Shown one piece after another: positions 12,901 through 55,717 of a stretch of DNA of 64,000 nt. The translations under genes were made by a program, and so were the position numbers. The notes beneath the pieces are model-generated. The model was not told the origin of the DNA. It searched no databases and saw only the letters and a list, made by a program, of their open reading frames with translations. Positions within the stretch are counted from its first letter, which is position 1. The number at the start of each line of letters is the position of its first letter. The stretch is from Amoebophrya sp. A120 (Eukaryota; Protista; Dinoflagellata). The stretch spans positions 1,936,391 to 2,000,390 of the forward strand of contig CAJINV010000004.1 of NCBI GenBank assembly GCA_905178155.1, in the 5' to 3' direction.

Positions 12901-15900
12901 CGACCTGCCAATGCCCCGGCCACAAAAAGAGAGGGCAACGTCGAAAGCAAAGCCACGGAAGAACCAAACATCCCCTAGCCCTTTTTCGAGGCAAGCAGGA
13001 CGGAGCGAGCGGCGCTTTCGCGCTTCCATCCTCCCATCCAATTGTGCCAATACGGCACGGGCAGCACCCATGACAGGGAACTGCCCCACACAGGCAAGGA
13101 CGAAGTAAACGAGCACCAGCGCCACCCCATGACTATGTAGCCCCCGCGCAAGCACCAAATAGAAGCCCTGCCCAAGAGAACGGCGGCGCCCACCCCCACA
13201 GGCGATTATACATCGCCGGGCCGCGAAACTTTTTGCGCCCCGCCCTGTCCAAGAAAATCCCGGCCGCCTTACGTTAGAATTAACGACTCGCGGCTGCCAC
13301 CGCGGCAAAAGGCCCCAAAATCCCACGGGTCACTAGAGTCGGCATGCCAAGAACTTGGCTGCCGCGAAATCAGACCTCCACCACAAAGGAACTGCCCCAC
13401 ACACGGGCCCGCCTGCCGCACGCGCCCGGGCGCACGGAGCGGTCGAAAAGACAGCCGGGGTCCGCCCCAGATCCTGCAAACGCTGCGGCCATACGAAGCG
13501 CCCCGGACCCCACGTGCCTGTGCTTCTTAGCCCAGAAACTGCCATCTGCGCCCCATGCGCTTGGCGCGCACCCGAAGCGCAACTGCCGAACAAGGTCGCA
13601 GCTTCAACCGCGGGGCGCAAGGAAACCTCGCCGCGGCGGCAGGAGCGACGCCCGCGCGCGGCCCCCGAAGACAAGGGACCCAAGAAATCTGCCCCGCCCT
13701 GCCAGCCACGCTAATATAGAACCTCCCGAGCGATGTCCTCGATCCACTGCAGGCACTTTTCATGACTCGCAAAAGCCCCCCCCTCTTCGCCGGAAAACTT
13801 CTCCGAACGACTTCGAGGGACAAAAATCGCGCAAATTCGATGAGCTCGCGCGTGCTTTTTCGTTCGAATGGCAGCAGCGTGCGACAGCGGTCAGTAGTAC
13901 AAATACTTGAGCACTATTATCATAAATGTAGTCACTGTAGTTGTTTCTCTTCAGTGCTCCTGCGGCGCCATGGCGCGCCTGAACTTTTTGAGCTATTATG
14001 TCCCGTCTCTCGGGGAACCTCAGGTCTTCGCGAAACGGAGTGAGGCGGCAGCTAGTGCGCATTGATTTCTGAAAAGTCTTTGGCCTTCATTTTGGAAGAA
14101 TGAGCTATCGCACTCAGAAGCGACTTCTCGCTTTTGCTTTTGTTTCTGGATTTTCCACAAACCCGATTGATAACCGGTGGCGCGTCTTCTACAGCCAGAA
14201 GGTAGCACTGACCGGCTACCAATCCCGCGACTGAAAAGTTTCTTCTTTGAAACACAGGTGAGAAGTCACTGACTTCTCAGTTTTCCAAAATTATCACTCT
14301 TGAAAGAGGGGACGAGACTCCGACTCGAGACTGAGAATTTTCCAGAAGTGAGAAATCACTGATTTCTCACTTCTCACTCTTGAATCGGATTCCCAGAGAG
14401 ATAATTTTTGAAAAGTGACCAATCCGATTCCAGAGTGAAAATTTTTGAAAAGTGAGAAATCAGTGATTTCTCACTTTTCAAAAATTCTCTCTCCAGAGTG
14501 AGAATTTTTCAGAAGTGAGAAATCAGTGATTTCTCACTTTTCAAAAATTCTCCTGGGGCCCCGCCTCCAGATTGAGATTTTTTTAGGAGTGAGAAACCAC
14601 TGTCTTCTCACTTTTGAAAAATTCTCCCTCTGGGACTCCGACTCCACTAGAGTGAGATTTTTTTAAAAGTGAGAAATCACTGACTTCTCACTTTCTGCAA
14701 ATTCTCAATCTGGGACTGCGACGCCCGAGTGAGAATTTTTCAGAAGTGAGAAATCACTGATTTCTCACTTTTCGATTTAGGGTTGAGATTTTTTGAGACG
14801 TGAGAAATCAGTGATTTCTCACTTTTCGAAAAGGGGCCCCGACTCAAGAGTGGGAATTTTTTCGAAGTCAGAAGTCGCTGACTTCTCAGTTTGCGAAAAT
14901 TTTCACACTGAGACGCCAGGGTGAAAATTTTTCGAAGTGAGAAGTCACTTTAGGTGGTCGCGCCGTGCTTTGTTAATTTCTCGCTTGGTCTCGTGGTAAA
15001 AACTTGAGGAAAACTAGCGAGATCACTACCCTAGCAGGGGAACAAGGCGAAACGGGTGAAGTTTGCCAGGGCCACTCTCGTGGCCCTAGCAGGTGGCCCA
15101 CGCGCCCGCCCGCCGCTCGTTTGCCAAATTATCGCGCTTCGGTCCCTCGAAGGTCTCCGGGGAAGTTTTCCGGCTATCAATTCTATTAGAGGGGAGCGAT
15201 GTCCTCGATCCACTGCAGGTACTTTTGCTTGATCAGTTGTTCCCTCACATCGATGATCTCTTCCTGAAATTTCCGGTAAACCAAGTGCCGGCTGAAGGGG
15301 GCGGAGTTTGGCGTCGATGGTTTTGCTGTCGTGCTACTTATAATTTCCCCAGTACTTAGTTCCTGAGATGTAGTTGATCCACGCTGGTTAAAAATAACAG
15401 CTGCAGCAGCTTCGTTGACTTATCCTCTGCAAAACTGCCGTACTTCTTGTGCTGTTGTCTGAGTGACGGCTCTTGTTTGACATGTCTGGCAAGAACTCAG
15501 CATAGTAATTCTATGCACATTGCACTTTTGTTTCCTTCATACTTCATTCTGCGAAAACGTATATATTTGCGTTCAACTGTGCGAGAAGTACGACAGTTTT
15601 GCAGTGCATACGTCGACACCTGCTGCACCTATTCCGGCATGATGAAGGTCGTGATTTCCGAGCATCCGCAATTGCAGAGTGGTCCTTGTGGTGGTTCTCA
15701 TCACGTCCCGAATTTGGTTCCGAAACTCCTGCTTTGTGATGTTTTTCAGCCGGCGCAAAACAATGTAATACAGCGTTCGCTTCTGCCGCGGGTTGACCTG
15801 TGGCTGGCTGGCGCCGTGTACTAGGTGTGTTGGTGTACTAGAAGACTTATTTTTTCGTTGGTCTCTTGTTGATTTGCTTCCTCCTTGGCTCGCAACTTTC

Positions 15901-25039: not shown

Positions 25040-25250
25040 GTCATCATTTTCCCTTAATGCCGTCCCCTCCACTTCTCCGCGCGTAGTTATTTTCCACCGC
25101 TCTTTTGCCAGAAGTACCTGCTCCTCGATAACTGCTTCGTCCTTCCAATAGACCACTTTGAAGCTGCTGTTGCTGGCTGTCCGCACCCCCTCAACCTTCT
25201 ACCGGCGGCAGCACCTGCTTCCCGTGAAAGTAGTACCAGAGAAACGCGAG
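25040..25250 (-). pseudogene. Diverged copy of the last exon and 3' UTR of the amino-acid permease, lacking the introner
   Basis: Aligns by eye to ~29780-29983 plus 30358-30361; encodes LAFLWYYFHGKQVLPPVEG*. Confidence 0.8.
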
Positions 25251-26307: not shown

Positions 26308-28208
26308 TCAACTAACGCAGCAATCAGAAATGTCGAATGCCTCATCTGCGCCGAGGGGCCGGTCACCATTCAGTCGCCGGCTGCCGGACATCGGCAGGAT
26401 CATCCCCCCAAGGATCACCCCCCTCAAGATGCAGGGGGGGGGTGAGGGGGGCCAGGGGGTGGACCGGGGGCAGGAAGCAAGGGGGCAACGAGCGAGGCCG
26501 GGGGCAGGCAGCCAGGCTACGGGGGGGGGGACAAGGGCAGGCGGGCCGGCGGCAGGCAGACCGGGGGCAGGGCGGGGCGGCGTTGGTATCTGCATGCTGG
26601 AAGGCCTTCCAAGAGGATTCCTGGCTCAAGATGTGCGACAGGCGGGCAGCCACCCGAGGAGGCCCGGAAGCGCCTAGCGCCTCGCCCGCCGAGGCAGCAA
26701 AGGCGGCACAAAGAGCGCGCCCCCCCGAGCGGGAGCACGGCAAACCAACGAAGGGGGGAACGGGGAGGGAAACACAGGGCGGGGGGCGAGGGCGACGAGG
26801 CGGCGCGTGCCTCCGACCCGCAACAGGAAGGGGCAAAAGGGAATCGTCTGGGCCAGCCGTCGCGACGGCGCCGTCGCGACGGCTGGCCCAGACGACACCG
26901 CCGAAACCCTAAGCCCTAAGCCCTAAAACCTAAACCCGACGCCCTTGAGGGGGGTGATCTTGGAAACTTGAGGGGGGTGATCTTATCTTGAGGGGGATGA
27001 TCCGGCTTACGTCCCCACCAGCCCCCATTGTTCCGCTGCTGGGTTGCGTGCAAAGTCGGTGTGGTGGAGGGGATCTCGTCTTTTTCGATTGGGTCCGCGA
27101 TGTAGGTACCATGAGCATCACGGTGTCCTCGTCGGAAGCGACTATTGGGACCGAAACCGATGCCGCGAAATCTCCTCGCCTGTCCTGGCGATGATGTAGG
27201 TGGGGAGGCGATTTGGGAAAGTGGACCACTTGGTTGTAGCAACAACTGGGTGAACGACGTCTCCGCACTGGTCTGCGAATGGGTTCGCATACTGCAGTAC
27301 AGGCCGTGTTCCGCGAAGTCGAGCTTCCCGTCGTTGTTCAGGTCCGCCTGCTTCGGACACACGGCATTCTCCTCTCCGTCCAGCACCCCGTTGTGGTCGG
27401 TGTCCAGCGAGTCGAACTTGATGGTGATGAGCACGTCGCTGCGCGTGACATTGTGGTCCGATGCGAGGTCGGCGACCAGGGTGTCGAAGTGTTCCTGGGA
27501 AGCGGCCGCGATGCTGCCAGCGTGTTTCACCTGCTGAAGGCGCGCCTTGCTGGAGAACAGGGTCTGCAGTTGGGGAACGAGGGAAGTTTGTGCAAACGAG
27601 ACCGGCTGCAGGTTCGACGTGGCGAGAGGTGTGGCTTTACCTGTGGTCGTGTAGCGTACGAGGCTATTGCTCAGAGCGCACAATGAATAATCTTGCGCCA
27701 TTAGCTGATGCAAGACTTTGCTTTCCTATCAAACTTTTTCTGATGTGTGTTTCCATACCTGTGCAGGTCGGAGTCATGGTTGATGATGTCATGAAAATGC
27801 CATACGAATAACTAGATACCTTTGTTCATACTGCCGGTCTTCGGGGACCCCCCCCCCCACGCTGCAACTTCGAGGAAGGCGCTGCCGAGCGGGTGCGGGA
27901 ATCTGCATTAGTATTTTTGCGGAACGTTGAAATAGTTGCTTGGTATGAACATTTAGTTCAGATGAAGTAATCTTTTGGCCGAGCGATACTTACTGCGGCT
28001 GTGCATTATTTTAGTTTTAGCTCTACTTGCATGATTATGAGTTGCCGGTTACCAAAACAATAATACCTTTCCCTTTCGTCATTTCGTTAGCCGCATGGGG
28101 TTCGAGGCTGAACAGTTCCGCATCCTGATCCACTGTCGACTGCACAACGCCTGCTGCAGCCACGGGAAGTGAGAGCAGGAAGGCAACCGCAACAGTAGCA
28201 GCTCGCAT
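26308..28208 (-). CDS. Secreted EF-hand protein (multi-exon; 3' end uncertain)
   Basis: Signal-peptide-like MRAATVAVAFLLSLPVAAAG (ATG 28208); EF-hand loops FDSLDTDHNGVLDGEE and ADLNNDGKLDFAEH in the 27005-27700 exon. Confidence 0.7.
26844..26895. repeat. Perfect 52-bp palindrome with a nested 14-bp palindrome in each arm
   Basis: tcgtctgggccagccgtcgcgacggc|gccgtcgcgacggctggcccagacga. Confidence 0.95.
26904..26937. repeat. Interstitial telomere-like repeats (CCCTAAR variants)
   Basis: aaaccctaagccctaagccctaaaacctaaaccc; TTTAGGG is the plant-type repeat also known from dinoflagellates. Confidence 0.75.
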
Positions 28209-29930
28209 GATGATTTGTTGTTGTAGATTTGTGGACAAATTCGAATTCCTCTCCTCTGCGAAAACGGGACTCCTACGTATCTATAAGTGTACAGTTTTCG
28301 ACGTAACTTTGTTGGGCAACAAGAAAGCGACGGCCCCAACAGAGTTGGGGAAGCAAAGGAAATTGGGGCATTAAGCTGCAAAAAATGTTCCGAAAAGCAG
28401 GTGGTCTCGGCATGAAATGCGGTCTGAAGTTCTACGAAGACGAGGCCTACCCAGAGGACCGCTACTATTGCTCTACCCCTACACGAAAAGCGAGTTTGCC
28501 TGGAGCGAGGCCCCGAAGATAATCAGATATCTTCTAGTACGACTTATGAGAGGCACCAGCGCCAGGGCAAACTTTGGTGAAATGATTAAACAAGACGAAT
28601 ATCGAGTTTTTTGAAACGGACCCGATGCATGTTACAGACACAAAACTTCGCTCGCTATGCAATTTTTAACCCGTGTACGCGACTCTCGCAGGCAAAATTG
28701 CACTCGGCACGTAAAACGAGTATGTTTCCTACTTGCACTTACAATATTCTATATTACGTGCGTCAACAAAGATAGACGACCCGACACAGTCATGATGAAT
28801 TGCATTTACATATCAACCCTCCCGATGGATAAATATCACTGAGAATCAACTTCGTTTTGTTTTTGCTTCTTCAGCTTGAGCTTTGAAAGTGTGAGATATG
28901 TCCGGCTCATATTACTTAATTTGCATCACTCCGAAACATACCACCACGCATTGAGTCTTGTGGCCAAATCTCTCACGTAGCACTGGACACACGCTCCGCG
29001 CGCTGAATGTGAATTCAATTCGCGGACATGAAACAAAGATAATTGGCAGAGTCGGGCTCGGGCAATCCCGATCAAAAATTACTAGTGCTTGATAAGTGAG
29101 AAACCAGTAAGTTCCGCCAAAGTGGCCACGAAGAAAAAACCGTAGAAGTGCTTATCCATATGCTAGGCGAAAACTCCAGCAGGCTTCTCGATTGTTCATG
29201 TCCTGCTGGCCCCAGAGCATTTTCACAGGTCTGCAGTACCGCACGAAGTTTGTGCTGAACTCCTATTCTTTGCTTACTTATCCTACCCAGCAGCCGCTTC
29301 GTCATCAGAATCGATCAGAGTGCGTCCGTGTGTCTTTCGCAAACGCAAACCTCCCAGCGCGGCTCCAATCATTATTTTACCACGACTTCTAAGGGTCCCC
29401 GCGCGTCGACATTTCGACGTGCCCTCCGCAAAAATCCACCCAACCCACAAATTCGCAGCTGGCTATTATCTCCACGCCCTCGGCCGGAGGAGGTCGTGCA
29501 CCAGGCCTACGCAGACACTTTGTCGCGATGCAGCTGACCCTCCAGGTACAACGCCGCTCGTGTAGAAAGGGGAGAGGGAAACGCTCGTGCGCGCTATTGG
29601 TCCACCATCATCTGGCCTGCCGCGCGGTCACTCAAGGACGCTGCGCCGAACAATCCTGCAGATTCATGCGCAGCTGCGTCGCTGTGTGGTTGTGTGGTAC
29701 AACACCCCCAGATCATGCTGTCCAGCAGGTGTGCCCGCGCGTCTGCTGAGGATGGGGTGCTGGCCGCTCTCACGTGGGCCGCTATTTTCCAGTGTGAATG
29801 CCTCCTCCTCCTCCTCGCGGCTTCTGCTCCACCACTTTACTAGCACAAGTCCCTGCTCCTCGCTGCCTGCTTCGTCCTTCCAGTAGACCACTTTGAAGCT
29901 GCTGTATCTATGGCGTTCCTCGCCCCCTCG

Positions 29931-32900
29931 TCAACCTTCTACCGGCGGCAGCACCTTCCCGTGAAAGTAGTACCAGAGAAACGTATCAAATGCAAAAATG
30001 TCTGGGTCTGGGAGATTGCAAGATTTGTCATGCATACTTTGCACCTTGATATACCCGATTCACACTCGGGGGAACTGGAACTTTCGCGAGACCAATGGAT
30101 CATGCATACTCTAAAAATTACAGGCATGATGGATCATGCATACTTTGCATGATCCATAATGCCTGTAATTCATGGCCTAGCATCACAGATTTTTAGAGCG
30201 CTTCCTCATGCCTATTCCGCATGACAAATGCCATCTCCGCGGAGTACAAAGTCTACTCCTCTTACTGGTCACGCAAGACAAATTTTTTTCGAATCCAGAG
30301 ACAGCATCACAAGTTTAGAATCTTCCAGACCCAGACATTTTTACATTTGATAAAACGCGAGGGTGAGCCACGCGAAGGACACGCCGAAGCCCCGGCGCAG
30401 CTTATCAACTGCAAAAATGTCTGGGTCTGGAAACTTGTGATGCTGGGTGGCGTATCATGAGGAGGCCACAAGTGCTGGCTCAGCGTGGCAAGGTTCTGAG
30501 CTTCAAGGTGTTGCCTATTCTGCATGACAAACTGCGTTTCTGAATGACAGAAAAATCGGTCTCTTGGGATGTGCATGACAGATTTAAGAGTCACGCGAAA
30601 CAAGCATGACAAACTTGCACTCTTCCAGACCCAGACATTTTTGCATTTGATACAGCTGTGCCAGCATCAATAGGTTGAAGAACATGCCAAACAGCGCGAT
30701 GAGCGGCATCCCGGGGACCACGTGCTTGATGTTATCGTTTTCCAGTTCCCAGACGCTTATGGATTGCAAAAATGTCTGGGTCGGGAAGAATGCAACATTT
30801 GTGATGCAGGTTTTCGATGACCCATGAGGCCTGGCAAGCAGCGCCTAGCATGGCAGATTCTGTGAGAGTTCTAGCATGCCTATCCTGCATGGGAAACTGC
30901 CTCTCGATTAGGTCAAAAGTGGGCAGCTTTTGGTAATCATGCAACACAGATTTTTACATGATTCAGATTTAGCATGACAAGTTGCTACTTTGTTCCAGAC
31001 CCAGACATTTGTGTATTTGATAACGCTCGACATCGCGACGTGGGTCCCGATCCCGAGCAGAAACACGATCAGCATCGCCGGTTGCCACACCGGAAGTTCA
31101 GCCTCGATGCTGACCGACACGAGCAAGCTCAACACTGCGAAACCAAAAATACCGTAGAAGTAGTGGGTGTGCGTTTCAACATCGGTTTCAACATCATCCG
31201 CCGCTTGTTGGTTTTCGTTCGTGTGTGCTAGTGGGTCGGATTCCAAAGCAGCTCCAACACGATCTTCCGTGGTCCCGGTCACTCGTGTCCTTGTCGTGCT
31301 ACCTTCTCGGGTTGCTGCTCCTGCTGCGACGGCCTCAGAAGTGATCTTGGTCAGCGGTCGTGCATCATGCTGCTGCGTTTTAGCACCTCCCTCTGGTTGT
31401 TGTACGAGTGGCTCGTCCTCTCCCTTTCCAGCCACTGGATACTTGTTGTACTCCCCGTCCTCGTGATTTCTTCCTGCCATCTTCAAATGCAAAGATGAAG
31501 GCGGCTTTCTGGAAGCTAGCACCGCCAGACAGACGAGCGTGAACGCGATCAAGGTCCCGACGGAGTTCACCTCGGCCAGAAACCGGTAGGGAAACAGGGT
31601 GAGCACCGCGGAAAACCCGGCCTGCAGCAGCGTCGTGCCGACGGGCGTGTGCGTTTTGGCGTTCACCTCGGCGCACCAGGCCGGCAAATAGCCCTCCCGG
31701 GCGATGCGCAGCAGCATCCGACTGCTGGACAGCAGGTAGTTGACCGCCAGGGGAAAAATCCCCAGGCACGCGCCGATGGAAATCAGGTCCGACACCACCG
31801 GCGCCTTGTTCCTGGTCAACGCCGCCAGTGGCGTGGGGTCCTCGAGTTTCGTTACATCGCGTCGGAATGATGTTGATGTTGTTGTTGCGTCGGAATAAGT
31901 CATGGCGGAAAGGAACGACGCAAGGAAAGTGCTTGCTGTCGCCACCCCGTCTCTGCGAAGCAGTAGAGAGGTCGAGGGAGAATTCGAGCCCGCGGAGGTA
32001 GAAAAAAAAGGTAAGGAAGTAGAATCTCCGGCTGAAGTAGTGCCATCTAATTGCAGCTCCTGTGCAAGAACGCCAGTTCTCTGATGCACCACTGAGCTCG
32101 CTTTCTCCTGCAGAAACAGCAAAGCCTCGCCTCCCCCGCCGGAGGAGGAAACGGAGTCCAGATCCGCGAAGGCCTTGGCGTCGGTGAGACTCAGAATTCC
32201 GAGCGCGACGGAGAAGTAGACGGCGAAACTCCCGGCCACCGTGAGCACCATCGCGGCCGGGAGCGTGCGCTTTGGGTCCCCCTTCGTCTCCTCGGCTAAT
32301 TGGGCCAAGGACTCGAACCCGATGAAAGCGAAGACGATGATCCCCGCGCCCTCCAAAATGCCGCCCAACTATGAAATGCAAAAGCATCGTAGTATAAATC
32401 GCATGACAAATTCCCGTAGCATGAAAAATGGAATTTGTAATGCGGATTTAGGTTAGGAGGGAAATTTGTAATGCATGACTGCGATTACTACGAGTACGAT
32501 ACTTTTGCACAGGATATCAACCCCGTCGGCGCAAAGTACTTGCCGGGCTCCTCGCTCCATACGCCGACCTTCTCGGGCAGCGACCCGAAGCCGACGTAGA
32601 TGGAGAACGCGATGAAAAGACACAACGCGCCGCCCTTGGCAAACATGCCCGTGTGGTTCACAATTTTGGACATGTCAATGCCGAAGGTCACCGTGGCAGT
32701 GACGATGTATGCAATGCAAATTATATGTCTGGGTCTGGAAGGATGCGAACTTGTGATGCTGCATCTGGATTCTACGAAAATCTGTATTGCATGAACAGTA
32801 AAAGATATCCTGTTTTTGCCATTGCGAGAGGGCGTTTCTCATGCGGTATAAGAATCAGAAAGCCCTCATAAAATCTGTGATGGTATGGCATGCATCACAG

Positions 32901-33960
32901 ACATGAGGACTCATGCAAAATGTGCATGCCAATCTTCCAGACCCAGACATATTTGCAATGCATACGATGGCCCAGAACACAATGGCAACGAAGTCGAAGG
33001 AAACCAGGGCCTCCGGTTTCTCCGGCCCGTGTCCCACGGTGTTGGAAGCTTTGTTCTTCGAGGAGCCAGACGTCAGGGAAATGCCCTGGTGTGGTGATAG
33101 ATTATTGTGTTTGTCTTTTATTCAAATGACCAAGCAGCTTTATTGCAGCTACAACAGATTTTGGCTCTGCGAAAACGAGAAGACCGATGAAAAAAGAAGG
33201 CGAAAGAGATTCGTATCTATTTGTATTCGTGTAGCGCAATGGCCTCTATATCATGTTCAAGTTCAAGTTCATCTAAGTACCTCTATTATACCAGATCGAT
33301 GTCGTGAACCCGTAGTAGCGCCGCACCGGCGGTGTCTTTTCCGTTTCCGTCTTCCACGATCGGCAACACCACGGAGCGGAAGTAGTTGGCAAAGCCCTTT
33401 GCGGACACCGAGAACCCTACCATCATTTCCAAGATCAACGCGGACGCGAGCATGAACGCGGTCTGCTCCCCAAATTGCCGCAGCACGAAGCCGTAGGCCA
33501 CCCCGAGCTCCTGGCCAGTATACGCCGACGCCTCCACGTAGCAGAAGGCGCTCATCAACACGGCAAAGGCGGTGAGCGTGAAGCTGATCAGCACCGCCGG
33601 GCCCGCGGCCAGCACCGCGGGGCCGGACAGGAGAAAAATCCCGCTTCCGATCGTGCATCCCAGTCCAAAGAGGACCAAGTCCGGCAGAGACAACGCCCGT
33701 TTCAACTGGTGCAGCTGCGCGTGCTGATCCTGTTCAAGGTCGGTCTCGGTACCGATGCTGGAGGGCGGGTAGGCGTAGACCTTGCGTTTGTTCTTGTTTT
33801 GCGGCGGGAGGTTTAGGTTGTCATTGACGGTCATGCCACCTCCGCCGGCGTTCGTTTCCTCTTGTGCAGGAACAACCCCCGGTGCTCCATTGAATATCGT
33901 CGTGGCGCCAGTGCTGGAAAGCATATTGCTTTGAGCAAGAGGAACGTCACTGTCAGACAT
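29931..33960 (-). CDS. APC-superfamily cationic amino-acid transporter-like permease
   Basis: LKRALSLPDLVLFGLGCTIGSGIF..AGPAVLISF; GILEGAGIIVFAFIGFESLAQLAEETKGDPKRTLP; SSSRMLLRIAREGYLP; GTLIAFTLVCLAVL; C-terminal VPGMPLIALFGMFFNLLMLAQ-LRRGFGVSFAWLTLAF-LWYYFHG..VEG* after introner removal. Confidence 0.93.
29984..30352. mobile_element. Introner family A with a 90-bp internal insertion
   Basis: TIR present; DR aaacg; extra 30044-30133 relative to sister 17837-18102. Confidence 0.92.
30403..30652. mobile_element. Introner family A
   Basis: TIR present; DR cagct. Confidence 0.92.
30758..31022. mobile_element. Introner family A
   Basis: TIR present; DR acgct. Confidence 0.92.
32370..32516. mobile_element. 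Introner family D
   Basis: tatgaaatgcaaaagcatcgta ... tacgatacttttgcacaggata; DR ccaac/tcaac. Confidence 0.85.
32708..32964. mobile_element. Introner family A
   Basis: TIR present; DR cgatg. Confidence 0.92.
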
Positions 33961-34862
33961 AATGTATGATGTAGTTGCGCAGTCAAAACAAGAATCTGCG
34001 AGTGGGGTCTGTTAAAACGGCGTGACTCCTCAGTTTTGCGCTCGGCGGTGGAGCAGGTCGAGCAGCAACATTTTGATCAGTGAAGTAGAGTCATCTTGCT
34101 TGATTTGGACTTGCTATTCGCGTTCTTCTACCACACTCCCCTAGTTCGTCGTTCCACTTGCTCCGTGCTACGTGCCTCGAATATTCTCTTCTTGTGGAAG
34201 TAAAATCTAACGGCTTCTAGTGCGTATGTCGACAAAACCCAATTTAAATGAACCGTGAAGAACGACGACGAGCCCATTTGTCGGCAGATTACAGCTCCAG
34301 CACTCCCTTATTTCCGCTCGACGAGGCAGCGCTTGTTTTGTTAAGTTGTGAATCACAACCAAAAGCGACTGAAAGCCTCGTAAAAGTTTTGCTCTCGTTG
34401 AATTTCAACTCAAAAGGAATAATTCCTCCAACGCATTCCGCTTGATGCGGCTGGACCAAGAACTCTCTAGGAGTACGTCTCGAAGACGAAGATGAGCTTC
34501 GCAGCAGCAGCTTCAGCTTGTCGAGTTGTCTACTGAAAAAAGGATAGGTAAACAAGTAGGACCACAGTAAAGAGGACCACAAAGCGAAGAGCTGGAAGTT
34601 GAGCACGACGAATACGTCATTTCACAACACAACACTTCCGCGATATCACAGCTCTTGTGCGTATTGAGTTACGACCCCTGCAGAACAACACCGCTCGCTT
34701 CTGCAGTTCGGTATCTCCTTAATTCAGCATGCGCTCGTGGTTCCTGCAGTCACCTCTCGCAACAGCAACCTCCTGGTACGACAGTCTAATCATAAACATG
34801 CAAGAACAGACGCAGTTGATGTTGACCTTGACGCAAGCACTTTTACAAAAGGTGTTTTGTAC

Positions 34863-37800
34863 TCAGAAGAAGTGCTGCAACAGCGGTCCACTGGGTTTGG
34901 CGTATAGGCCCCACACGCTGCCCTTTTCAAATCGCAGATAGCCGCTCTGCTTTTCCGCTCCGTCCTGCGTCGCCTCCGAGTTGTTGTGTACGCGCACCTG
35001 CGTCTGCCAATCCGGGCCGTAAAAGCTGTCCAGCACCTTCTCGGGCTCGGGCGGCAGCCACACCCAAGTGTAGGCGCCAAAGGGCGTTTTGGTGCGGTAA
35101 TCGTGTAGCTCGAACAGTGGCGGATTGATGTCCAGGCGATCGAGCTCCACGCCCGCGAAGGCGGTCCTCGTCCTCGTGGTTCTCTCACTTAGAGCAGAAG
35201 TGGCGCCGGAGTGAAGAGCAGAGAGGCCGTAATTTTTCCTCACCACCGCCGTGTGATTGTGGAACACCGCTTTGTAGGCTGGCAGGAACAGCGTTTTGTT
35301 GACGGCCCCCCGGAGCCGGCTGTTCCGCCCGACCACGCGGGTGGTCCAAAAGTAGGTTTTGGGGTTCAGCTCGATCTCGTGGATCTCGATGAAGGGCGCA
35401 CCGCAGGTCAGCGTTTCCTCGAAATTCTTCGAATTCCGGAACTCCGCGACGGTCCGACTGTAGCGCACCGTGTTCCGCTTGCTGCAGAACCGCAGGCTCT
35501 GCGCCGTCGTGTACAGGTAGGACGTGTGGATGTTCAGACGCCGCAGCCGCTGCACGAAGGCGCTGCCCGGGGCGAACAGGTAAAAGAAGTCCCACGGGAC
35601 TGCGAAGTCAATGTCGATGTCCTGGGGCATGTGGCCACCGTGACGCAGCGCTCCGATCATGCTGCCGTGCGAGATCCACCAGACGGCGCCGAAAAAGTCC
35701 AAGGCGCGGCCCACGTGGTGTACCAGGGAGTACACGGTCAAAATGTCCATCGCCGTGGACTGGTGCTGCAGCGGCGGCCACGAAGGCCCCGCGGGGGGCA
35801 AAGGAACAGCAGGTTGCTCCTGGTTCTTCGGTCTATAATTTTTCGCCGGCGGTCCACCCTTGTGTGCAAGACTATCATCTGAAAACAGAGTCTCGGGGCA
35901 CATGTTCTCTGGGCAAAGGGCTTCGTCAAACAGACCGTGCATGGTTTCCCGCGACCCGGGCTGCGTCACGAGCATGCCGTCCTCTGTCCGCAAAATTTTG
36001 TGGGGACGCCGGCAGTACCGCGCGGGCCCGCGCTGCCGGGCTAACTGCAACTCTCGCTCGGACAGAACATTTTCTTCCTCGCTTGACGAGGATACTGACG
36101 TTGTCGTCGCGTCTGGTCGCATCGATGGAGACGTTTTTGACAACGGCCCGGATAAATCAAATTGGTCGTCGCCAAACTCAATCCCAGCTCTCGCGTCCAC
36201 GCTGGCGCGTGCACACTGCTCCGATAGAAGAGGTTGTACTTCTATAATGGGGACGAAATCTTTTGTCTTGCCATGTTGTACTCTCTGGTCTCGTCCTTCT
36301 TCCTCCAGCATTATCCCGGGCATTTGCGTAAACCGGCGGGGCCACCAGAACGAGTTGCGCAGCGGACGGCCAGCCACCTTGCCGGCGGTGATTTTGCTCG
36401 GATACCGTTGCTGCGGCAGAATCGGCAACTTCTGCACGGTCACCGTGTTCCGTTTCTCGTACAGAGTTGTAATAAAGTCCATTTCATTTTCGGATGAACC
36501 CGCAGGCACTGCCGGAGTTGGATCGTCCGGTACCCCTGGTGCTCCTCCACTTCCTGTTGCCACGCGCCCAGTCGAGATACGAGGAGCCAGCTCCGCAGTC
36601 CTGAACGCCGCCAACTGTCGCGCGAGCTTTTGTTCTTCGTCTTCCAGGTCTGCTGAGCACTGCAAGTGGTCCTCGTAAAATGCGTTTTCGTAAAAGATCA
36701 GCGGCGAGGTTGAGGACGGGATTTGTTCGGTGGCTACGGGTACGGCAGGACTGGAGAGAAGCGCCGTCGTCGTCGTGTTTCCTAGCTGCTGGCCTGGTTG
36801 TGGTCCTTTGGTCGTGACGTCGTTGCTCTTTACCGCATCAGCCTTTGTACTCGTACTCTGGTCGCGGGCCATCGTAGATGAACTTCCGGTCGCGGATTTT
36901 GTGTTCGCGGACAGGTGGGTACTAGTAGAAACAGGTCGCCTAGTCGTGGAAGAAGCTGGTCGACGTTGTGTACTTCTCGTACACAGCGTGCTGCTTGTCG
37001 ACGCGGACGACCATTCATTTTCGCCCGTTCCTGTTCTCTCGCTCTCCCCACCATACAACTTCTCGTGGTACGTCGCCCCGTCGGATTGCACGACGAAATC
37101 CAGCAGCGTCTGCGGCTCCAGCTGATTCGCGATGCCGTTGGTCGGATTGCGCTGGTTCAAAAGAAGAATTTCCCTCCGTCTGCGCGTCGGCTGCTGCAAA
37201 AAGAAGGGCCACTGCTGCAACAAACGCTCGTACCCGCGGTAGTTGGTTTCCGCTGCCGGGTGCCACAATTCTGACTTCTTCAATGTTTTCACAAAGTGGA
37301 CCTCGAAAAAGTCGGGGCTCCGTTCCGGGTCAGCTTTGGACAACGCGTAGCGTGCGATCTGGTCTTTCAGATTTTTCATCTCAGGTCCTGGTGCTTCATC
37401 CTTATCCATTGCATCATTATGCGCGGTGAAGTCGTGTAAACCGGACAGAAGTGCGAAAATCGGAACCTCGTTCACAGACTCACAGAAGTTATCCAGCGGG
37501 TCTTCGGCCACCACGCCCTGCCCTCCGTCGAAAAACGAAAAAGGGCTTGGCCAGGGTGTAGTTTCTTGTTCTACCTTGCTATTCATTTTTCTCGCAGGAG
37601 GTGCGGGATCCACTATTTCGTTCATTTTAGCTAGCGCCGCTGCTCCGGCCCCCGAATCTTCAGCGTTGTTGCTGTACGATCTTCCAGGGTCTGTTTTTAC
37701 CGGTTGTAGTTCATCTGGTTGTTCTACGTTATTTCCCCCCACCGCATCAGTCGTCGTAGTGAAAAAAGAATCCAACATGCCTCCGAAGAGTGACCCCGAC

Positions 37801-39553
37801 GAAGTTGGCGCAGCATCCCCGTTATCTCGTGCCACATTTGCGACGATTTCATCCTTTATTCCACTGCCTGTTCTTCGTGCAGCACGAGAACTTCTCTCTT
37901 GCGTCTCCTCCACCAAAGCCGATGTAGTAGTGCTCGCGGCTGATGTGGTCGCTCCATCTGCTGTTTCATCTTCTGTAGCCGCGACTTGCAACCTTTTTCG
38001 CACCCGCAGAAAGCGTGTCAGGTGCCGCGTGGGTTGTGCATCGAACTCCAAGTCTAGCGCTTGCCATGGTTTCTGTGCGGCGTTGTAGTACCACTTGGCG
38101 TTCCGCAGCTCCCCGTTGCTGACGCCTTCCGTGGCGCCCTTGTTGGGGTGCAGCCCCGACAGGGCCAGGTGCGCGAAGCCGGCGCTGAGTAGACAGACCC
38201 GCTTGCAGGAGGCCTGTTGCACCTCCTGCTGCAGGCGGAGAAACAACTGGTGCGGCCACGTGGCGCTGGGAAGGGAGAAGGGAGGAGGTCCAGCTTTTTC
38301 CACCTCTTCTTCCGAGCCTGGTGTCCTCGTGCTCGCAGTCGTGCTTGTCATCTTTGTCATACTGCACTCCTCGACTCGCCCGTAAAACGGCGCGTTGCGG
38401 TACACCATGGAAAACATGCAGGCCCGGTAGTCGAAGCCGGCGGCCTCGCGGTACAGGTCGAAGATGTCTTCCTCGGCCTGTATACCGACCGAGTTGTCTT
38501 GGACCCCACCGTATGCATTTTAGCAAATGCGTCTAGGTCGTCTGTGGAGGCGGAGGGATGCTTGAAACATCTGTGTGTTGCGTGAGCAGCGAGAGCTGCT
38601 CACTTTTTGCCACACCAAAAAGCGACAACATTGCGAAGACTATATTATCTTGCGAAATGGGTACGAAGAAGTATTAGCAGGTCCTGATCGTGCGGTCGAA
38701 AACAAAAGTGCATCACAATCGCAAAACAAAGCCTTTCTTCTCCAGACGCAGACATATTTGATGTACTTGATACGCCGAACAGGTCGTATATCTGCCCGTC
38801 CCGCATGAAACTATCCGCAGTCTCGTGCGTGGCGCCGATCAGGTAGAAACTGTTGTCAACGTGATGGTCGGAAGCAGGTCGGACATCTTGTTCATCCGGA
38901 GACGCGAAAACGGAAAGCTGCGTCTGTAAGGCTTGCTTCGATAGAGTTGGCGTAAGAACTTCGCTGCTTTGATTTTCACTTCCCGTCGACGCTATCGGAC
39001 TTTTCGCTGTGGTAGTACTTCTCGACCGGACGCCCTGCTGTTGCTGGTGGCCGCCTTTCACCTGCCCCTTGCCGGCGTAGTTGTTCGCGTTTGACGAGGG
39101 TGCTGTCATGTCTCCTGTTGCAGCTGTTGCTTGTTCACTTGCAGACTCACTCCGTAAGGTCTGTATCCGCAGGTCCGCTAGCGCGATGTGCCGGCCGGAA
39201 GCGGGTATCGGGGACAACATCTTCTCCTTCAAGGCAGCACTACCAAAAGCATTCTGCGTAGATGTTGGCGGTGAAGATCCACCTGGTGATGGCGAAGGTT
39301 CGTCTTGTGAGGGTACTTCTCCTACCCCCGCAGCTTGATCGCCCTCTCTTTGCGACGACGTAACGGGACCAGTACTAGTGTGGTTCTCGTCGTCCTCTCC
39401 ATCGAAAAACGTAGACCAGGCCATTTTGGGATACCGCCGACTCAGCCACTTGTGCCGCGGCAACGAGCGGCGCAGGCGGTCGCTGTGCGTCAGGTACAAC
39501 CCGCACAAAGGGTTCACCAGCGCGAAAAAAAACAAGCCGGGCCCCGCCACCAC
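34863..39553 (-). CDS. Large LicD/fukutin-related nucleotidyltransferase-fold protein (start uncertain)
   Basis: WWISHGSMIGALRHGGHMPQDIDIDFAV and PPEPEKVLDSFYGPDW match LicD motifs; the 302-aa ORF joins the 1184-aa ORF in frame (LFG-GVQDNS...ACMFSMVY) on removing 38512-38772 plus one DR. Confidence 0.85.
38512..38772. mobile_element. Decayed family A introner
   Basis: tatgc...ctccagacgcagacatatttgatgtacttgata; DR caccg/cgccg. Confidence 0.75.
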
Positions 39554-48688: not shown

Positions 48689-51600
48689 CTAATTGAACAT
48701 TCGGTCGTCGATGTGAAAGTGTTTCCTGCCCGTCGGCTTTCGTCGCCCCTCGCGCGGGCTGGACAGCAATCCGAGCACCTCTTTTCGCTCCCCCGTCGCG
48801 GCTAGCTGCACGGGAATTTCTTTCACGCCCTGCAGAATCATCTGGCGGCGCCCGGTCTTCTTGATGTTACCGCCCTGCAGATCCTCGGGTTTCTGGCTCC
48901 ACAGGTCCCCGTCTAACAGTGCACAACTCTCCCTCCCCCTCATTTGTATAGCGTGAACGGCAATACAAGCACGTGCAAGAATGCTGGTTTTGCATGACAA
49001 ATTTGCACTGGATTATTCAGCTATTTGGGCTACCAAAACTTGTCATGTTGGGAAGCTAAGGGCTGGGCGTCCCTGTCGTTCTCTAAACCTTTGTTGTCTA
49101 AACCTCGCTACCAAAACTTGTCATGCAAACAGTGCCAAGAGGCAAAGGGTAAGCCTAAACGTAAATTGGGTATTTTGCATGACAAATGAGGGGAAGGGGG
49201 AGTTGTGCACTGTCATACCCCGATGTGGTCGTACGCACAGGCGGGCACGCGGGACTCTTTCTCCAGTTGCCCGTTCTTCTGGGTGATGTCTTTGGCATTG
49301 ATGCCCGCATAGCCGGATTCAGTCGCGAACAGCTGCTGCGGGTGCTGCTTGTGCTGCCGCATCATCGCGGGTTCATCGTCCGGCAGCTCAAAACGCGTGG
49401 TAATGTTGTCCTTTGCAATATGCAATGCAAAAAGAAACCACCTCCCCCCCACCACAAAGTTTCTGTCCAGGAAATTTGTAGGCCTGAAGACAAGTGTGAC
49501 GTGCACAAACCAACGAAAGGCCGTTGATTTTTCGCAGTAGCGCTGTGTCTCATGTTTTAGTCGCGATACAGCAAAACTGGAAACATTCATTGTAGCAGAA
49601 GTCTTGAGCAACATGCAGATACCAGGACTTCTATTAACCCAGACCACACGAAACAAAGATGATGTCATGCGTGATTCCTAGTAGGCCTTCCTGGCTTGCG
49701 AACTACGCAGAGCTCGCATTGGCTTCGCTCCTATTGGCTCGTGTGGGGACGATGGTTTATTTCACACAGGATATGCTACCGGAACATCGATGTCCTCCAC
49801 GCGGCGACGGTAAGCTGTGAAGTAGAGATCGCAATTTTAAAGACGAGCACAGTGTTTGTCATGCGAAACGGGCCTCACAGAGAAACCTATCATGCACACG
49901 CAGATTTCAATTTGTAGTTGTACTTGTAGTATAGTAAACTCTAGTACGGTAGCAGGCTTCCCGCTCATCTACGTTCATCATGTCGCTTCCCAGGTTGCTC
50001 CGCCCGCCTTGGTATGCAATCAAAAACTTCTAGTCTGTCGTACGAGTAAGTAAATCGCGATTTTTACAAACTTGCGCAGGAAGGAGTCATGATGTGCAAT
50101 CAACTATAGAGACCAGATGTTGATCTGCCCCATGCAAAATTGCAGAATTCATTCAAGTACAACGACCCTTTTCTGCACTGGTTATCTTTGGATCCACAGC
50201 GAACTGCAGACCGGACCGGGCCTCCGCGCCCCACAGGAAATCCGGGGTGGCACTCGCCCGCGGCACGCCCACACCGTTGCCGGTGGAAAAGTGGTCGGGC
50301 TTGGGGTTAGCGACGTGCCTCCGCCCGTCGATGCGTTCCGGCGCAGCAGCCTGCTGTGCGGGGTTCGCTAGTTGTACCGCGCGCATGTTTGTGCTGCCCA
50401 TGTTTGAGGCAGAACTCGGATGGGCACCTTGGTGGTCGTAGTGCTTCAGCTCCTTGCGCTCGTAGAAGTGATCGTCCCCGCGAGACAGATCCGGGGAGGA
50501 GGAACCTGGGTTGGTGGTGCAGAGAAAATGAAGAATTCGACGTCTTCTACCTTCACCGTGAGTTGTTCTTCACATCAACTCGCGTTCTTCATATGCTTGT
50601 GCCTGCGCGATGCGAAACAAATTTGTCTGATGGTGCAACGTGCAAGCACACACTCGACGACAAAGAAGTGTACTTACAACTATACCGGTAGCAAAGTGGT
50701 CCGGCCGGCCGTGGACGTGTTTTTTTCCGTGCGCCCCCACGGCGTAGGACGAGCGTGGCGACGAGGGCAGCCCTGCTTCCTCTGGTTCTTCCACCACTGC
50801 CATCCCCAGGGCGAAATGGTCGACCTGCGCCGCCGGAACGTGCTGCAAGAGCTGCTGCTCCCCGCGACTCCAGCGCGCCTTGATTTCCCGCTCCTCGTGT
50901 AAGTCGGCTTTTTTGTGCGCGTGGTGCAGGGAATCCAGGGTGGCGTCGTTGTCCGATGGCAGGTCCAAATTTCGGCTCGTCCCGAACGGCGGCTATGAGA
51001 GCGCACAACTCTTCCTCCCGATTAGTCGTAGCTGTGCAAAATCACAAATCCAGTTGCTGTCTTAGTCTTTCTCTTTCAGCAGTGTTCGCATCTGGAAGCG
51101 TACTACATTCGACATCTGAACTTATCATGATGCACAGGCTCTACATGGTGGTGATGGTATGCTGGGGTTATTATAAATTCGCATGGCGGTTCATGCCATA
51201 CACATGAGGGGGAGGAAAAGCGGTGCACGACTCTCATAGCCGCGTCTGGCTCGCCACATGCTGTTGGCCGACAAGCTCGGTCTGCAGCCGCATGATCTCA
51301 TTGATCAGACTCACTTGCTGACCTAGAGGACATTTAATATTCCATTTATCATGAAAATTTCTTTTCACAGCAAGCAAATAACGACAAAGAACCTCACAGT
51401 ACGTACTTTGAAGTTTCATTGCACGCGATCATGATGCAGCAGGCACAACCTAGTGCTAATCCAAATCGCAGCTGCAAGAAGACGACTCTCCGTGTCAGGT
51501 AAGGTCGGAACTTGATTGAAAAACGGATAATAATAAATCAAAAATCTTCTTTCTTACGTGATTTCGGTTGTGCCTTCAGCCCCGAGAAGTCTTCGAGAAG

Positions 51601-51753
51601 GCGGATTTTGGAGAGGAGCCCGTTCTGGCTCAAGTGCGTTAGCTGATCGTAGGTGAAGATGGGAACTGCGGGCTTGTTTCCCGCAAGCGCCACCGTGGTG
51701 GAAACCGCGGGCGCGGCCGCCTGACCGCTGGATTTTGGACGTCGCTGGTGCAT
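48689..51753 (-). CDS. Multi-exon hypothetical protein with repeated G[RK][RK]H...DH motifs
   Basis: Exons MHQRRPKSS..., LINEIMRLQTEL, HGKKHVHGRPDHF, DGRRHVANPKPDHF, YDHIG-DLWSQKP...GRKHFHIDDRMFN*. Confidence 0.6.
48912..49217. mobile_element. Introner family F with nested 59-bp insertion
   Basis: acagtgcacaactctccctccccctcatttg / caaatgaggggaagggggagttgtgcactgtcata; DR ccccg. Confidence 0.9.
49048..49106. mobile_element. Nested insertion, 19-bp TSD, GCTAAGGGCTGGGCGTCCC motif
   Basis: gctaccaaaacttgtcatg at 49029-49047 and 49107-49125. Confidence 0.8.
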
Positions 51754-53170
51754 GATGTTTGGGTGGACGACGTGCTGCTTCACGACTGCGCGGAGTTGTT
51801 TGTTGCAGTCGTTACTTTTTCTAGACTGACCTAGGCGAGGTGACCGACCTAACGACGAACTTGTTTCGTAAAATCATTTTACACGGGAACTACGGTAAAA
51901 TTTTCAAAAAGAATTTCTAGCCTGATATGTCAAGTAGAGGTAATATTGCTACCTGACCATCGCTGGTGCCCACGAGCTACAACTACGTTCCTTTTGCGTT
52001 TCTTGCAACTAGTTTGTATACAAGCTGCAAAACCCAGAACGACGAACTCCACGATGAGCGGCTGAGAATCGAGTTTGGAGGAAGCACGACAAACTCCAGG
52101 ATCACGATGAGGATGAAGATGAACTACGACCATTCGACTTTTACTTACTCTGCGAGTGCTGATATTGCCAGTGCCAAAACGAATATCGACGACGAGACAC
52201 ATTACAACTTTTTTCCAACGAAGCATAAAGACGGATCGCATTGTAGTATTTTCAGTGGTCATGTTGTTGATTTCCCTTCGATGTGCGATTGTGGTTGTGC
52301 TAGTGAACGCAATGTCTAAGTGGAGTAACGCGATATTAAACACCATGTGCTTTCGTTGCTTCAGAATCTTGACCTTGCGCGAAGATGACCGGCGATCGAA
52401 AGGTCGTGAGGAAAAATAAGTACTTGCCCTATTGCTGGACTTCTATGATTGCAGCATGATCGATCGCGCAACCAGAAGGTATTAGAGCCATTTCCTCGCT
52501 TTCTTGACGTCTGCTCTATGGTCGTGTTCGTATTGCGAGGGTCTTTCCAGCAAGAAGTCGGCGCAATATCTATCAACATCATGGGGTGAAACTTTATGTA
52601 CTTATTGTGGTGCGCATTTTCCCAGGTGAAGTAGACTTGTGGAGTTGCGTCACGAGTGATGGCACAAGCTCCTGGGCGGTCTTGTCAAGAACGACCAATG
52701 CGGCGTGTGGTCAATACCACGGGCACGGGACGGAAGGCATTAAAACAGTAACAGCATGTAGTAGTCAAAGTACTCATGCAACTCGTAGTGTTCATTTCGT
52801 TTAACAATAAAGAAGCTACCTGGTAAAAATTCCATACCAATCATTCGACAATGCAACCTCTTAGTACCTCCCCGGCGATTTTTCCTTCCCCAGCCTCGTT
52901 GCACAAAAATACGATACAATACAACCTGCGCTGTGGCTGCGTGCCCGACGCAAAAATCGTAGTGGTCCTAAAAAATGTTCCAAAGCATGTTCGCCTACCC
53001 AAAAAAGCACAAGCCTTGTACTTACAAACGACATTTCTTCGTGCATGCTCGTCACGCACTGTGCGTTTGTTTGTTGAAAAGCATCCTCATTCTTCCGCTT
53101 CCGTGCGCCAGCTTTCGAAACCGCTGTTGAGTGTCTACGTAGAAGACAATGACAATGTCTCTTCCACCTA

Positions 53171-55717
53171 CTACAACTTCATCCCTGGTTCCAGGTAGTT
53201 CAAAATCCGCGTTCGATCCGCATCTGAAAGCCCGCGGTGCGGCAGCAAGTGTGTCCGCAGAAACTCCCGCTATCGAATGCAAATATCCCTGGATGTCTCG
53301 TGGAAACTTGTGATGCTGAGTGCCAAATCATGAGGACGCCGCAAGTGACAGATCAGCACGTTGACAAGTTTCTGAGCTATGCTAGGTGGTGTCTCTTCAA
53401 CATGACGAACTGCGTTTTTGCATGACAGAAAATTACGAGCTTTGGGGAGTAACGCGCATGACAGACTTGTTGAGAGTCATGCTAGCCGAGCATGACAAAC
53501 TTGCATTCTTTTTCTTCCACCAGAACCGCATGACATATTTGCATTTGATACCCGCTTGCCCCGCGCGATCGACAGAGACACCGCGTCGCGCTTGAACTGC
53601 GTGCGCCCGCTTACCTGAAGCAATTTTATTTTGCTTTTGGTTGCATGAATGTGCAGCATGAGAGCGCATAACAAGATAAATCATCATCATCATCATTTAT
53701 CCTGCACGACACCGCGACAGCACATTGTCGTTGCCAAGCTTCTGTTGATAAAAAAATTGCACAAGAACGATCCTACCTGCGTGAACTGCGGATGCTTGAG
53801 AATCAGTTCGGCGACATCAAAATGCCCAAGCTCCAGCGCCAACGTGAGACATGTGTTGCCCGTCTTCGCCGCGCGGTGGTCAATTAGCTGATGTAAAATT
53901 TTTACACTGGTGTGGATGACAAGGACGTTCACTGTCACTTTGTCGTCAACCAAAATTGATGTTTTGAAGTACTTACCACCGAAAAAGAAACAAAATGCAG
54001 CCAACTAAAAAAGAAGATATAAAAAGATACCTCGAAGCAGGAGGTCGCGAAAAGGTTTTCCTTCGTAGACGCTCCACCTCCTCCTAGGCTGCTATTCGCG
54101 ACGCTTATCCAAGATGACGTTCCTCCACTGCCCCCAGGGCAAGAGGCCGTCGACGCAGCTGCGGTAGAAGTTGTTCCGCCCGATAGAATTATCAGGTATT
54201 TCGCGACCTCAGACTCGTTGTCGACGATGCTCTGCATCAGCAGTGTATTGCCGGTCAGCGGACTCACGTCGTTCACCGACTTTGGGAACTGCATCCACAA
54301 CTTCCGTCCCTCGCGGTACCGCAGAATGGCAGCCCGCATGGCGCGCGGAGCCACGTCGTCGAAAATCCCCTTGAATGGGAAGTTCTCGTCTGCGGAAGGG
54401 AGATATTTCTCCCGTTCTTGTGAAAGAGCGAGCGACTCTTTACCTTGCACACAGCTGTGAGCGTGCGTCGCTGGCCCACTCGCGAGCGCGCCGTCGCTTG
54501 AACATGTTCTACTTGTGGAGCTCGTGCTGGATGGGCGCAGGCCTTCTTGTTGCACTCCGAGATGTTGACCCGTTCTACTTCGCTCAAACGTAGAGGTTCT
54601 TGTAGACGTATCTCCGCTCGCGGCCATCACCAGAACTTCTCGCTCGTCCAAAACCGGAAGCGGCAAAAACGGCGGGGGCGGAGATGATGCCGCTTCCGGC
54701 GGTGATCTAGTCGTCGACGAAACGAGGTGGGCGTCAGCGTCGTCGTCCTGCGTATCAAATTGAAACATCCCCCCTCCCCATCTCAAGACGAAGCTTCTGA
54801 TTTTGGATGGCTAAGGGCTGGGCGTCCCCATGTATACTATACCTAAAAAACTTAAACCATCATCGTCATCGTGAGGTACCGCGCAAGCACGAATACCGGC
54901 GGAGTGGTGACGACCGAAAGGGTCAGGAGACTCACCTTTCCCGGTAAACTCTAGTAGGATTATTTGGACGCCGCAATTTCCAATGCTGTTTAAGGGTCTC
55001 AGAACTTTCCTCTACAGCCTTTGAGTCAAGTTCGTATTAGTCTATAGTCTATATAACTAACTTCGTCAAGACGAAGCTTCTGATGCTGGATTTGCGTACA
55101 CAAATGACGTCTGTCTTGCAGTATAGGATTGCAGCCAGATTCTCAGCCTGTTTAGGAGTGTAAGCGCGTAGGTGTTTAGCATGAGAAAGGCCTGCTCTGT
55201 AGGCCCAACAGCATGAGAAACCGCATCCACAATGCAGCGCACACAACGGCGCTTGCTTTCTTACAAGACAGATCTGATTTGTGACCACAAATCTGCATCA
55301 CAAATTTTCAGAAGGATGCCTTTTTAATATGGGAAGGGGGGATTTTTCTTCACAATACTGCGTGGCTCGACTTCTTGCCACGACGTCGGTCTCGGTCTCC
55401 TGCTGGAGATAAGAACTTTGGCTTATTTGGGGAACAGTTGTAGTCGCGTTTGTTGTTCGCGGTCCCAGACTTCTCATGTTGTTCGTGTGAAGATGATAGT
55501 CCACCTGCTGGTGGTGCGGTTCTTCTTGCACTGGTGGAGATGATGATGACGACGACCCTTGTTCACCTTGTAGCTGCTCCTGCTTCCGCTGCTGACCAGT
55601 ACCTCCACACGTCGGAGTCTGTCTCACGACCCTGTCTACGTCTTCTGGGTGAGGAGAACACAACGGACCCTCGTCCGTGATGTCGGTCAGTGGCGAGTGC
55701 TCCGAGAGTTTTGACAT
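53171..55717 (-). CDS. Ankyrin-repeat protein
   Basis: VNDVSPLTGNTLLMQSIVDNESEVAKYLI; IDHRAAKTGNTCLTLALELGHFDVAELILKHP; FKRDAVSLSIARGKR-EFLRTHLL...GMKL*. Confidence 0.82.
53271..53550. mobile_element. Introner family A (moderately decayed)
   Basis: tatcgaatgcaaatat ... catatttgcatttgata; DR cccgc. Confidence 0.85.
54753..55357. mobile_element. Introner family B with nested 264-bp insertion
   Basis: TIR present; DR ctgcg. Confidence 0.9.
54802..55065. mobile_element. Nested insertion, 19-bp TSD, GCTAAGGGCTGGGCGTCCC motif
   Basis: tcaagacgaagcttctgat at 54783-54801 and 55066-55084. Confidence 0.82.

Follow-up and report, generated by a model that had tools for sequence, protein, structure and literature searches.

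We analysed a 64,000-nucleotide stretch of Amoebophrya sp. A120 contig CAJINV010000004.1 (hereafter the window), in which two introners, mobile introns that can be spliced out, each carry a nested insert that probably derives from a retrotransposon. One frame of the window is 99% identical to a protein named Amoebophrya sp. A120, one of four hits. The first host, an introner of family F at 48912..49217, has terminal inverted repeats, the left end mutated to TCT in place of TAT, and lies between two copies of the 5-bp direct repeat CCCCG (48907-48911 and 49218-49222). The second, an introner of family B at 54753..55357, has TAT...ATA inverted ends and is bounded by the 5-bp direct repeat CTGCG (54748-54752 and 55358-55362).

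Insert 1 occupies 49048..49106 on the minus strand (59 bp; by our reading the 3' end of a retroelement) and is flanked by an exact 19-bp direct repeat on the plus strand, the left copy at 49029..49047 ending in TGTCATG and the right copy at 49107..49125. Over its first 44 nt (49048-49091) it agrees at every base (100% identity) with the start of five longer copies described below, and 15 extra letters follow at the variable, presumably 5', junction (49092..49106, minus strand), a repeat of CTAAACCT among them. Insert 2 (54802..55065, minus strand) is a 264-bp mosaic copy of a TTCTGAT-type subfamily, again between exact 19-bp direct repeats on the plus strand, at 54783..54801, ending in TTCTGAT, and at 55066..55084. 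The two inserts share a 19-nt motif on the minus strand, at 49055..49073, 7 nt from the end that is common to all copies (the fixed end), and at 54810..54828, 8 nt from it. The window has no occurrence of this 19-mer besides those at 49055 and 54810; by chance 0.02 would be expected, and two were obtained in 0 of 100 shuffles. Deleting each insert together with one repeat yields a gap-free alignment across the site to two family-F and four family-B copies in the window. Because removal of the insert restores the alignment of the host family, the flanking repeats are true target-site duplications, and the TGTCATG and TTCTGAT letters are the host's own. The initial annotation is upheld on the two inserts, on their exact 19-bp duplications and on the 19-nt motif that they have in common.

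Beyond the shared start, the interior of insert 2 is composite. On the minus strand, 54860..54939 is an 80-bp remnant of a further nested piece, whose counterpart is whole in one of the additional copies (L008); 54940..54980 is a body module common to other subfamilies (31/31 to L008; 79% over 39 nt to L004); and 54981..55065 is an 85-bp stretch at the variable end, unmatched among the fetched copies and with a read depth above single copy at 55010. The two inserts had been said to diverge after their common start. This does not hold as simple divergence, and both are pieces of one family.

Both filled hosts are skipped in assembled contigs that are likely to represent RNA. One such contig, from run X3, joins 48906 to 49218 and omits 48907-49217, which is the filled family-F element plus one repeat; a second from the same run passes from 54747 straight to 55358 with nothing between, omitting the filled family-B element plus one repeat. 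The contig at the first host also omits introns reading CT..AC on the plus strand, which places the host gene of insert 1 on the minus strand. A120 introner elements have been described as having TAT-type inverted ends and short direct repeats and as being skipped in transcripts (PMC7789003, in its accessible sections), and both hosts agree with that description in their TAT-type inverted ends (TCT at the left end of family F), their direct repeats within the 3-5 nt range and their absence from the transcripts. Filled introners are thus likely to be excised from messenger RNA with the insert inside. Since the target lies in a removable intron, insertion likely costs the host gene little, and the safe-harbour effect proposed earlier fits the skipping of both filled hosts. 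On the DNA side, an X1 contig matches 53490-54823 without a difference and spans flank, host, duplication and 22 letters of insert 2. Because this contig crosses the junction and further copies exist, a library adapter can be ruled out as the source of the motif.

Further copies were sought in one metagenome scan with the exact 19-mer, which gave 11 matching loci. Eight of these are copies of the element, all from one assembly, bringing the total to ten, nine of them independent; seven of the eight have megablast matches to window introners at 81-93% identity. The other three loci (L005, L006 and L010) were dropped because they hold the 19-mer only, with no target letters before it, no junction duplication and no common body. 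In viral contigs the 19-mer had 0 matches, and the one viral contig with an 18-mer of the element body (L012, one match) was set aside as a chance hit with no further likeness. Copies lying behind TGTCATG are insert 1 (59 bp, duplication 19 bp), L001 (312 bp, 19 bp), L002 and L003 (each 284 bp, 17 bp), L004 (297 bp, 20 bp), L007 (366 bp, 6 bp), L009 (36 bp, 12 bp) and L011 (720 bp, 11 bp); those behind TTCTGAT are insert 2 (264 bp, 19 bp) and L008 (665 bp, 18 bp). An apparent 5.1-kb insert in L007 bounded by a duplication was rejected, with neither similarity nor an open reading frame (ORF) past ~340 bp. The copies do not support the fixed 19-bp stagger of the initial annotation, as duplications span 6-20 bp.

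The copies fall into related subfamilies. Their heads are of three types (TTGGGAA, TTGGAAG and TTTGGATG), the last paired with the TTCTGAT target in both of its cases, insert 2 and L008. Body identity is 92-99% within the main subfamily, ~70% to L004, and 75-77% over ~135 nt to L008. A further subfamily is visible at position 6035 of L011, in loose contig ends of runs X3 and X5, where the 19-nt motif has one letter changed and a different body start follows.

What unites the copies is the insertion site. In all ten (nine independent), the element starts at the same base, directly after TGTCATG (eight copies) or TTCTGAT (two copies), at TGTCATG^C or TTCTGAT^G. These two 7-mers occupy 7.7e-4 of window positions. 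Such base-exact insertion is characteristic of sequence-specific non-LTR elements (LTR, long terminal repeat). The hosts belong to several families, and the distance from site to host end varies (L004, 40 bp; L002, 48 bp; insert 2, 49 bp; L011, 107 bp; L001, 121 bp; the host ends of insert 1, L003, L007 and L008 were read by hand). Within the window, 58 of the 74 TGTCATGC sites lie inside repeats that cover 16.8% of the sequence, so that aiming at the motif mostly amounts to aiming at introners. The suspected targeting of the introner motif is in this way borne out. One could instead suppose that insertion is random and that inserts survive only inside introners, where splicing makes it plausible that they persist, and such survival may strengthen the bias. 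To persist in an intron, however, an insert need not lie at one exact base of a 7-mer, as it does in 10/10 copies; the idea is contradicted at the base level, and we consider it extremely improbable.

It might also be argued that one or two old insertions were simply spread by transposition of their host introners. This has probably happened once, since L002 and L003 agree in host, insert and duplication (one difference in 456 nt) but not in their upstream flanks (15/60 alike), which suggests that a filled introner was copied as a unit; host and insert likely transposed together to an unrelated locus. The remaining copies differ in host family, duplication and variable end, and insert 2 and L008, though at the same family-B site, are each bounded by a different duplication whose two copies match exactly. 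Contradicted for eight of ten copies, spread by the host alone deserves next to no credence.

At the other end the copies are ragged. They range from 36 to 720 bp from a common end, with longer forms in contigs, and have neither LTRs nor inverted ends. Extra letters stand at the variable junction of insert 1 (15 letters) and L009 (3 letters), and L004 has a target-like copy there. Duplications measure 11-20 bp in nine of ten copies and 6 bp in L007, against the ~10-20 bp expected of a non-LTR product; for long interspersed nuclear elements (LINEs), a first cut more specific than the second and duplications of 10-20 bp have been described (PMC6895275, in the sections accessible to us). Because one end is exact, the other ragged and the duplications mostly 11-20 bp, the pattern points to sequence-specific, 5'-truncated non-LTR retrotransposition. 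We therefore consider it probable, at roughly 85%, that the inserts are 5'-truncated 3' ends from a single non-LTR retrotransposon family with sequence specificity, or from LINE-dependent derivatives, and that they occupy one precise base position in a motif which many introner families share. In this respect, the earlier suggestion of an RNA-templated insertion with one fixed end is well matched by ten copies that share an exact end and are ragged at the other.

In the mechanism we envisage, an element-encoded endonuclease would nick 5'-TGTCATG^C-3', or TTCTGAT^G for the second subfamily, presumably on the plus strand (after 49047 for insert 1), with TGTCATGC and TTCTGATGC as candidate nick-target duplexes. 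The freed 3' end would then prime reverse transcription from the fixed 3' end of the RNA, which in the window would correspond to the minus strand. Copying would stop short at differing distances from the start, between 36 and more than 720 nt, and a looser second nick, 6-20 bp off, would create the duplication.

Sequencing runs add to the picture of a family with longer and more numerous members. The 720-bp insert of L011 is fully covered in run X1 at a depth of 119-808, against ~27 for single-copy DNA (depth being no copy number). An extra 58-bp copy appears as a joint in both DNA runs, and loose ends in X3 and X5 reveal more copies, with matches starting 8-9 letters before the fixed end, i.e., including the target motif. 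One likely-RNA contig each in X3 and X5 continues at least 255 letters past the variable end of L011, which means that L011 is itself truncated. Internal deletions of the element also appear as joints in contigs over L011. A reading of the loose ends past L011 as the end of an ORF was withdrawn (30 letters, ambiguous frames), and a conserved 3' hairpin was rejected (five weak pairs, 0 compensatory changes in five sequences).

Several points weigh against the retrotransposon reading and its splicing corollary. The fixed end has no long poly(A) tail, only 2-3 terminal A. No reverse transcriptase or endonuclease matched in Pfam among 86 frames (44 window frames of at least 170 aa and 42 frames of at least 150 aa from the eight loci, where all copies are truncated), so the linked reverse transcriptase that the initial annotation had asked for was not among them; a 42-residue frame taken from L011 had no homologues in a search. 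Past L011, only 30 letters of the extension are visible, too few to establish coding, and 6 of L011's 29 bins go uncovered in run X2. The 6-bp duplication of L007 is at chance level (0.25), and a search with the exact 19-mer would miss subfamilies with other targets, the variant motif in the loose ends being a case in point. As to splicing, the evidence is one contig per host from a run, X3, that is only guessed to be RNA. Because X3 and the DNA runs stem from different samples, the insert may have been missing from the template of X3; raw RNA reads number 1 in run X9 and 0 in X10, too few to test splicing.

The lack of a LINE ORF in these truncated copies leaves room for another reverse transcriptase system, such as a Penelope-like element or telomerase-like addition, or for RNA-templated break repair, in which ragged junctions arise as well. 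The initial annotation had pointed to telomere-like letters and a possible telomeric origin. These letters are single 6-7-mers in the element body, and tandem telomere repeats occur in 0 of 9 inserts tested, which counts against telomere-derived inserts and telomerase-like addition alike. Rfam, ribozymes included, gave 0 matches in the window and in the inserts of L011 and L008, the two longest, and repair would not yield one base-exact site and duplications of 11-20 bp in nine of ten copies. We regard this group of explanations as highly improbable. The same Rfam search found no match to a short interspersed nuclear element (SINE) head (transfer RNA, 5S, 7SL or small nuclear RNA [snRNA]) in the L011 and L008 inserts, L011 being itself truncated.

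Retrotransposition also appears to have acted on the element itself. In L008, a 463-bp piece (insert positions 59-521) lies between two copies of TTAAACCA, an 8-bp duplication, and starts with TCGTCA repeats, a simple-repeat end; insert 2 retains 80 bp of it (54860-54939). A form of the element without the nested piece is present in X1 as a joint from 54859 to 54940, with four letters between, at a depth of 287 against ~27. The 463-bp piece probably arose when a master copy in the TTCTGAT subfamily received a second retro-insertion.

We called the strand of the host gene at each site with a codon model trained on five long frames, in a test that was prompted by a pattern noticed in these same copies. 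The presumed element RNA has the sense of the host gene in all ten copies (nine independent), while motif sites in the same sequences are divided into 71 sense, 76 antisense and 33 unclear; the bias is significant by a binomial test (p 0.0014) and by Fisher's test (p 0.003). Strand calls are backed by splice ends for insert 1 and by a kinase frame for L002, and have small margins for L003 and L011. Orientation would be reversed if the RNA were capped or carried a leader, with its 5' end at the fixed end and its 3' ends variable. The copies would then be antisense to their host genes, an orientation towards which intronic retroelements of animals are commonly biased. We consider this polarity quite improbable, as the base-exact target boundary lies at the fixed end and the variable boundary with its junk letters at the other, which fits a first nick at the RNA 3' end (PMC6895275, accessible sections). 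In addition, the fixed end lacks TCAAG, the last five leader letters as given in the accessible part of PMC7789003 (compared by eye).

With the fixed end taken as the RNA 3' end, the sense bias may arise because the template strand is the one nicked, because replication favours one direction where gene blocks are co-oriented, or because antisense inserts are lost. It is tempting to go further and picture a family specialised on the common introner motif whose insertion is tied to host transcription. Such an element would nick the motif only on the template strand, land in gene sense, be transcribed within the pre-mRNA and leave when the introner is excised. Behind the element 3' end, the introner RNA would hold letters that match the target, and it could seed the next insertion; filled introners would also spread the element as DNA cargo. 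We offer this scheme tentatively and hold it to be unlikely in its entirety.

The process would be of a kind already known, sequence-specific retrotransposition into DNA transposons, and the initial annotation's proposal of an undescribed process is not supported, since retrotransposons that target a non-autonomous DNA transposon have been published. Tx1 (Tx1L) of Xenopus laevis inserts in Tx1D, a non-autonomous piggyBac family (PMC4494074, PMC1635306 and PMC1950540, as far as their accessible sections go). There too, a non-LTR element enters a specific sequence within a DNA transposon that is non-autonomous, a place where insertion is nearly harmless. In our case, by contrast, the target is a short motif common to many unrelated introner families, which lie within exons and are spliced out, and each of two subfamilies is matched with its own motif variant. 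As neither an endonuclease nor a reverse transcriptase was seen, the likeness is one of working only, not a clade assignment. Crocodilian Tx1-Mar and SINEU-1/2/3 favour Mariner-N4_AMi, and hitchhiking and co-transcription with the target are discussed for them (PMC4494074, same limit). There, a LINE and dependent short elements have 5'-truncated copies at fixed positions of a DNA transposon, much as proposed for the present family. In the accessible sections, however, they have one host family, not several, and nothing is said of that host being an intron. Their orientation goes with the host transposon, that of our copies with the host gene, and no snRNA head was found here, in truncated copies.

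In A120 itself, both hosts are introners of the kind described in PMC7789003, whose accessible sections describe no retroelement nested at a fixed motif. That paper does report non-LTR retrotransposons in A120, a point in favour of our reading. Some A120 introners have been attributed to non-LTR elements (PMC12130899, likewise in its accessible sections). These are also non-LTR elements in introns of the same genome, but they are treated there as intron-generating, whereas ours are inserts inside existing introners; the 19-mer is absent on both strands from supplementary file 3 of that paper, a BLAST table without sequences. We found no published description of a retroelement nested at a fixed introner motif, in a search that mostly went without subscription papers and the supplements of PMC7789003. 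What is new here is that the target is a motif common to different host families, that two subfamilies are paired with a target each, that all copies face one way and that a composite was copied.

These features bear on several wider questions. Safe-harbour targeting (reviewed in PMC6719617, accessible in part), known for ribosomal DNA, telomeres, snRNA genes and DNA transposons, would be widened to mobile introns that lie within exons and can be spliced out. Many introner families have a 7-8-bp motif in common that is apparently read by a retroelement endonuclease, which offers a handle on the role of the motif, and a new short-motif endonuclease could interest work on RNA-based gene insertion. 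The filled introners, of 311 and 610 nt, offer a natural way to probe how Amoebophrya carries out its non-canonical splicing, which is unexplained, and the strictly sense placement hints, in a way that can be tested, at how the target strand is chosen or at what antisense inserts break.

The window contains other repeats and genes. An array at 14258-14921 repeats a unit of 43-60 bp, which has a palindromic core, about nine times at a spacing of 54-104 bp, and a 26-32 bp repeat occurs three times near this array (12635, 13722 and 15194). A short run of telomere-like CCCTAAG/CCCTAAA units at 26905-26990, followed by an 18-bp direct repeat, stands beside a GC-rich palindrome. About 115 bp is present twice, at 25132-25246 and 29867-29983, 4.7 kb apart, with four exact blocks of 16-29 bp. 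On the minus strand, 30911-34011 holds an amino-acid permease gene in pieces, and 34866-38519 is an intron-free frame of 1218 codons with a LicD-family match.

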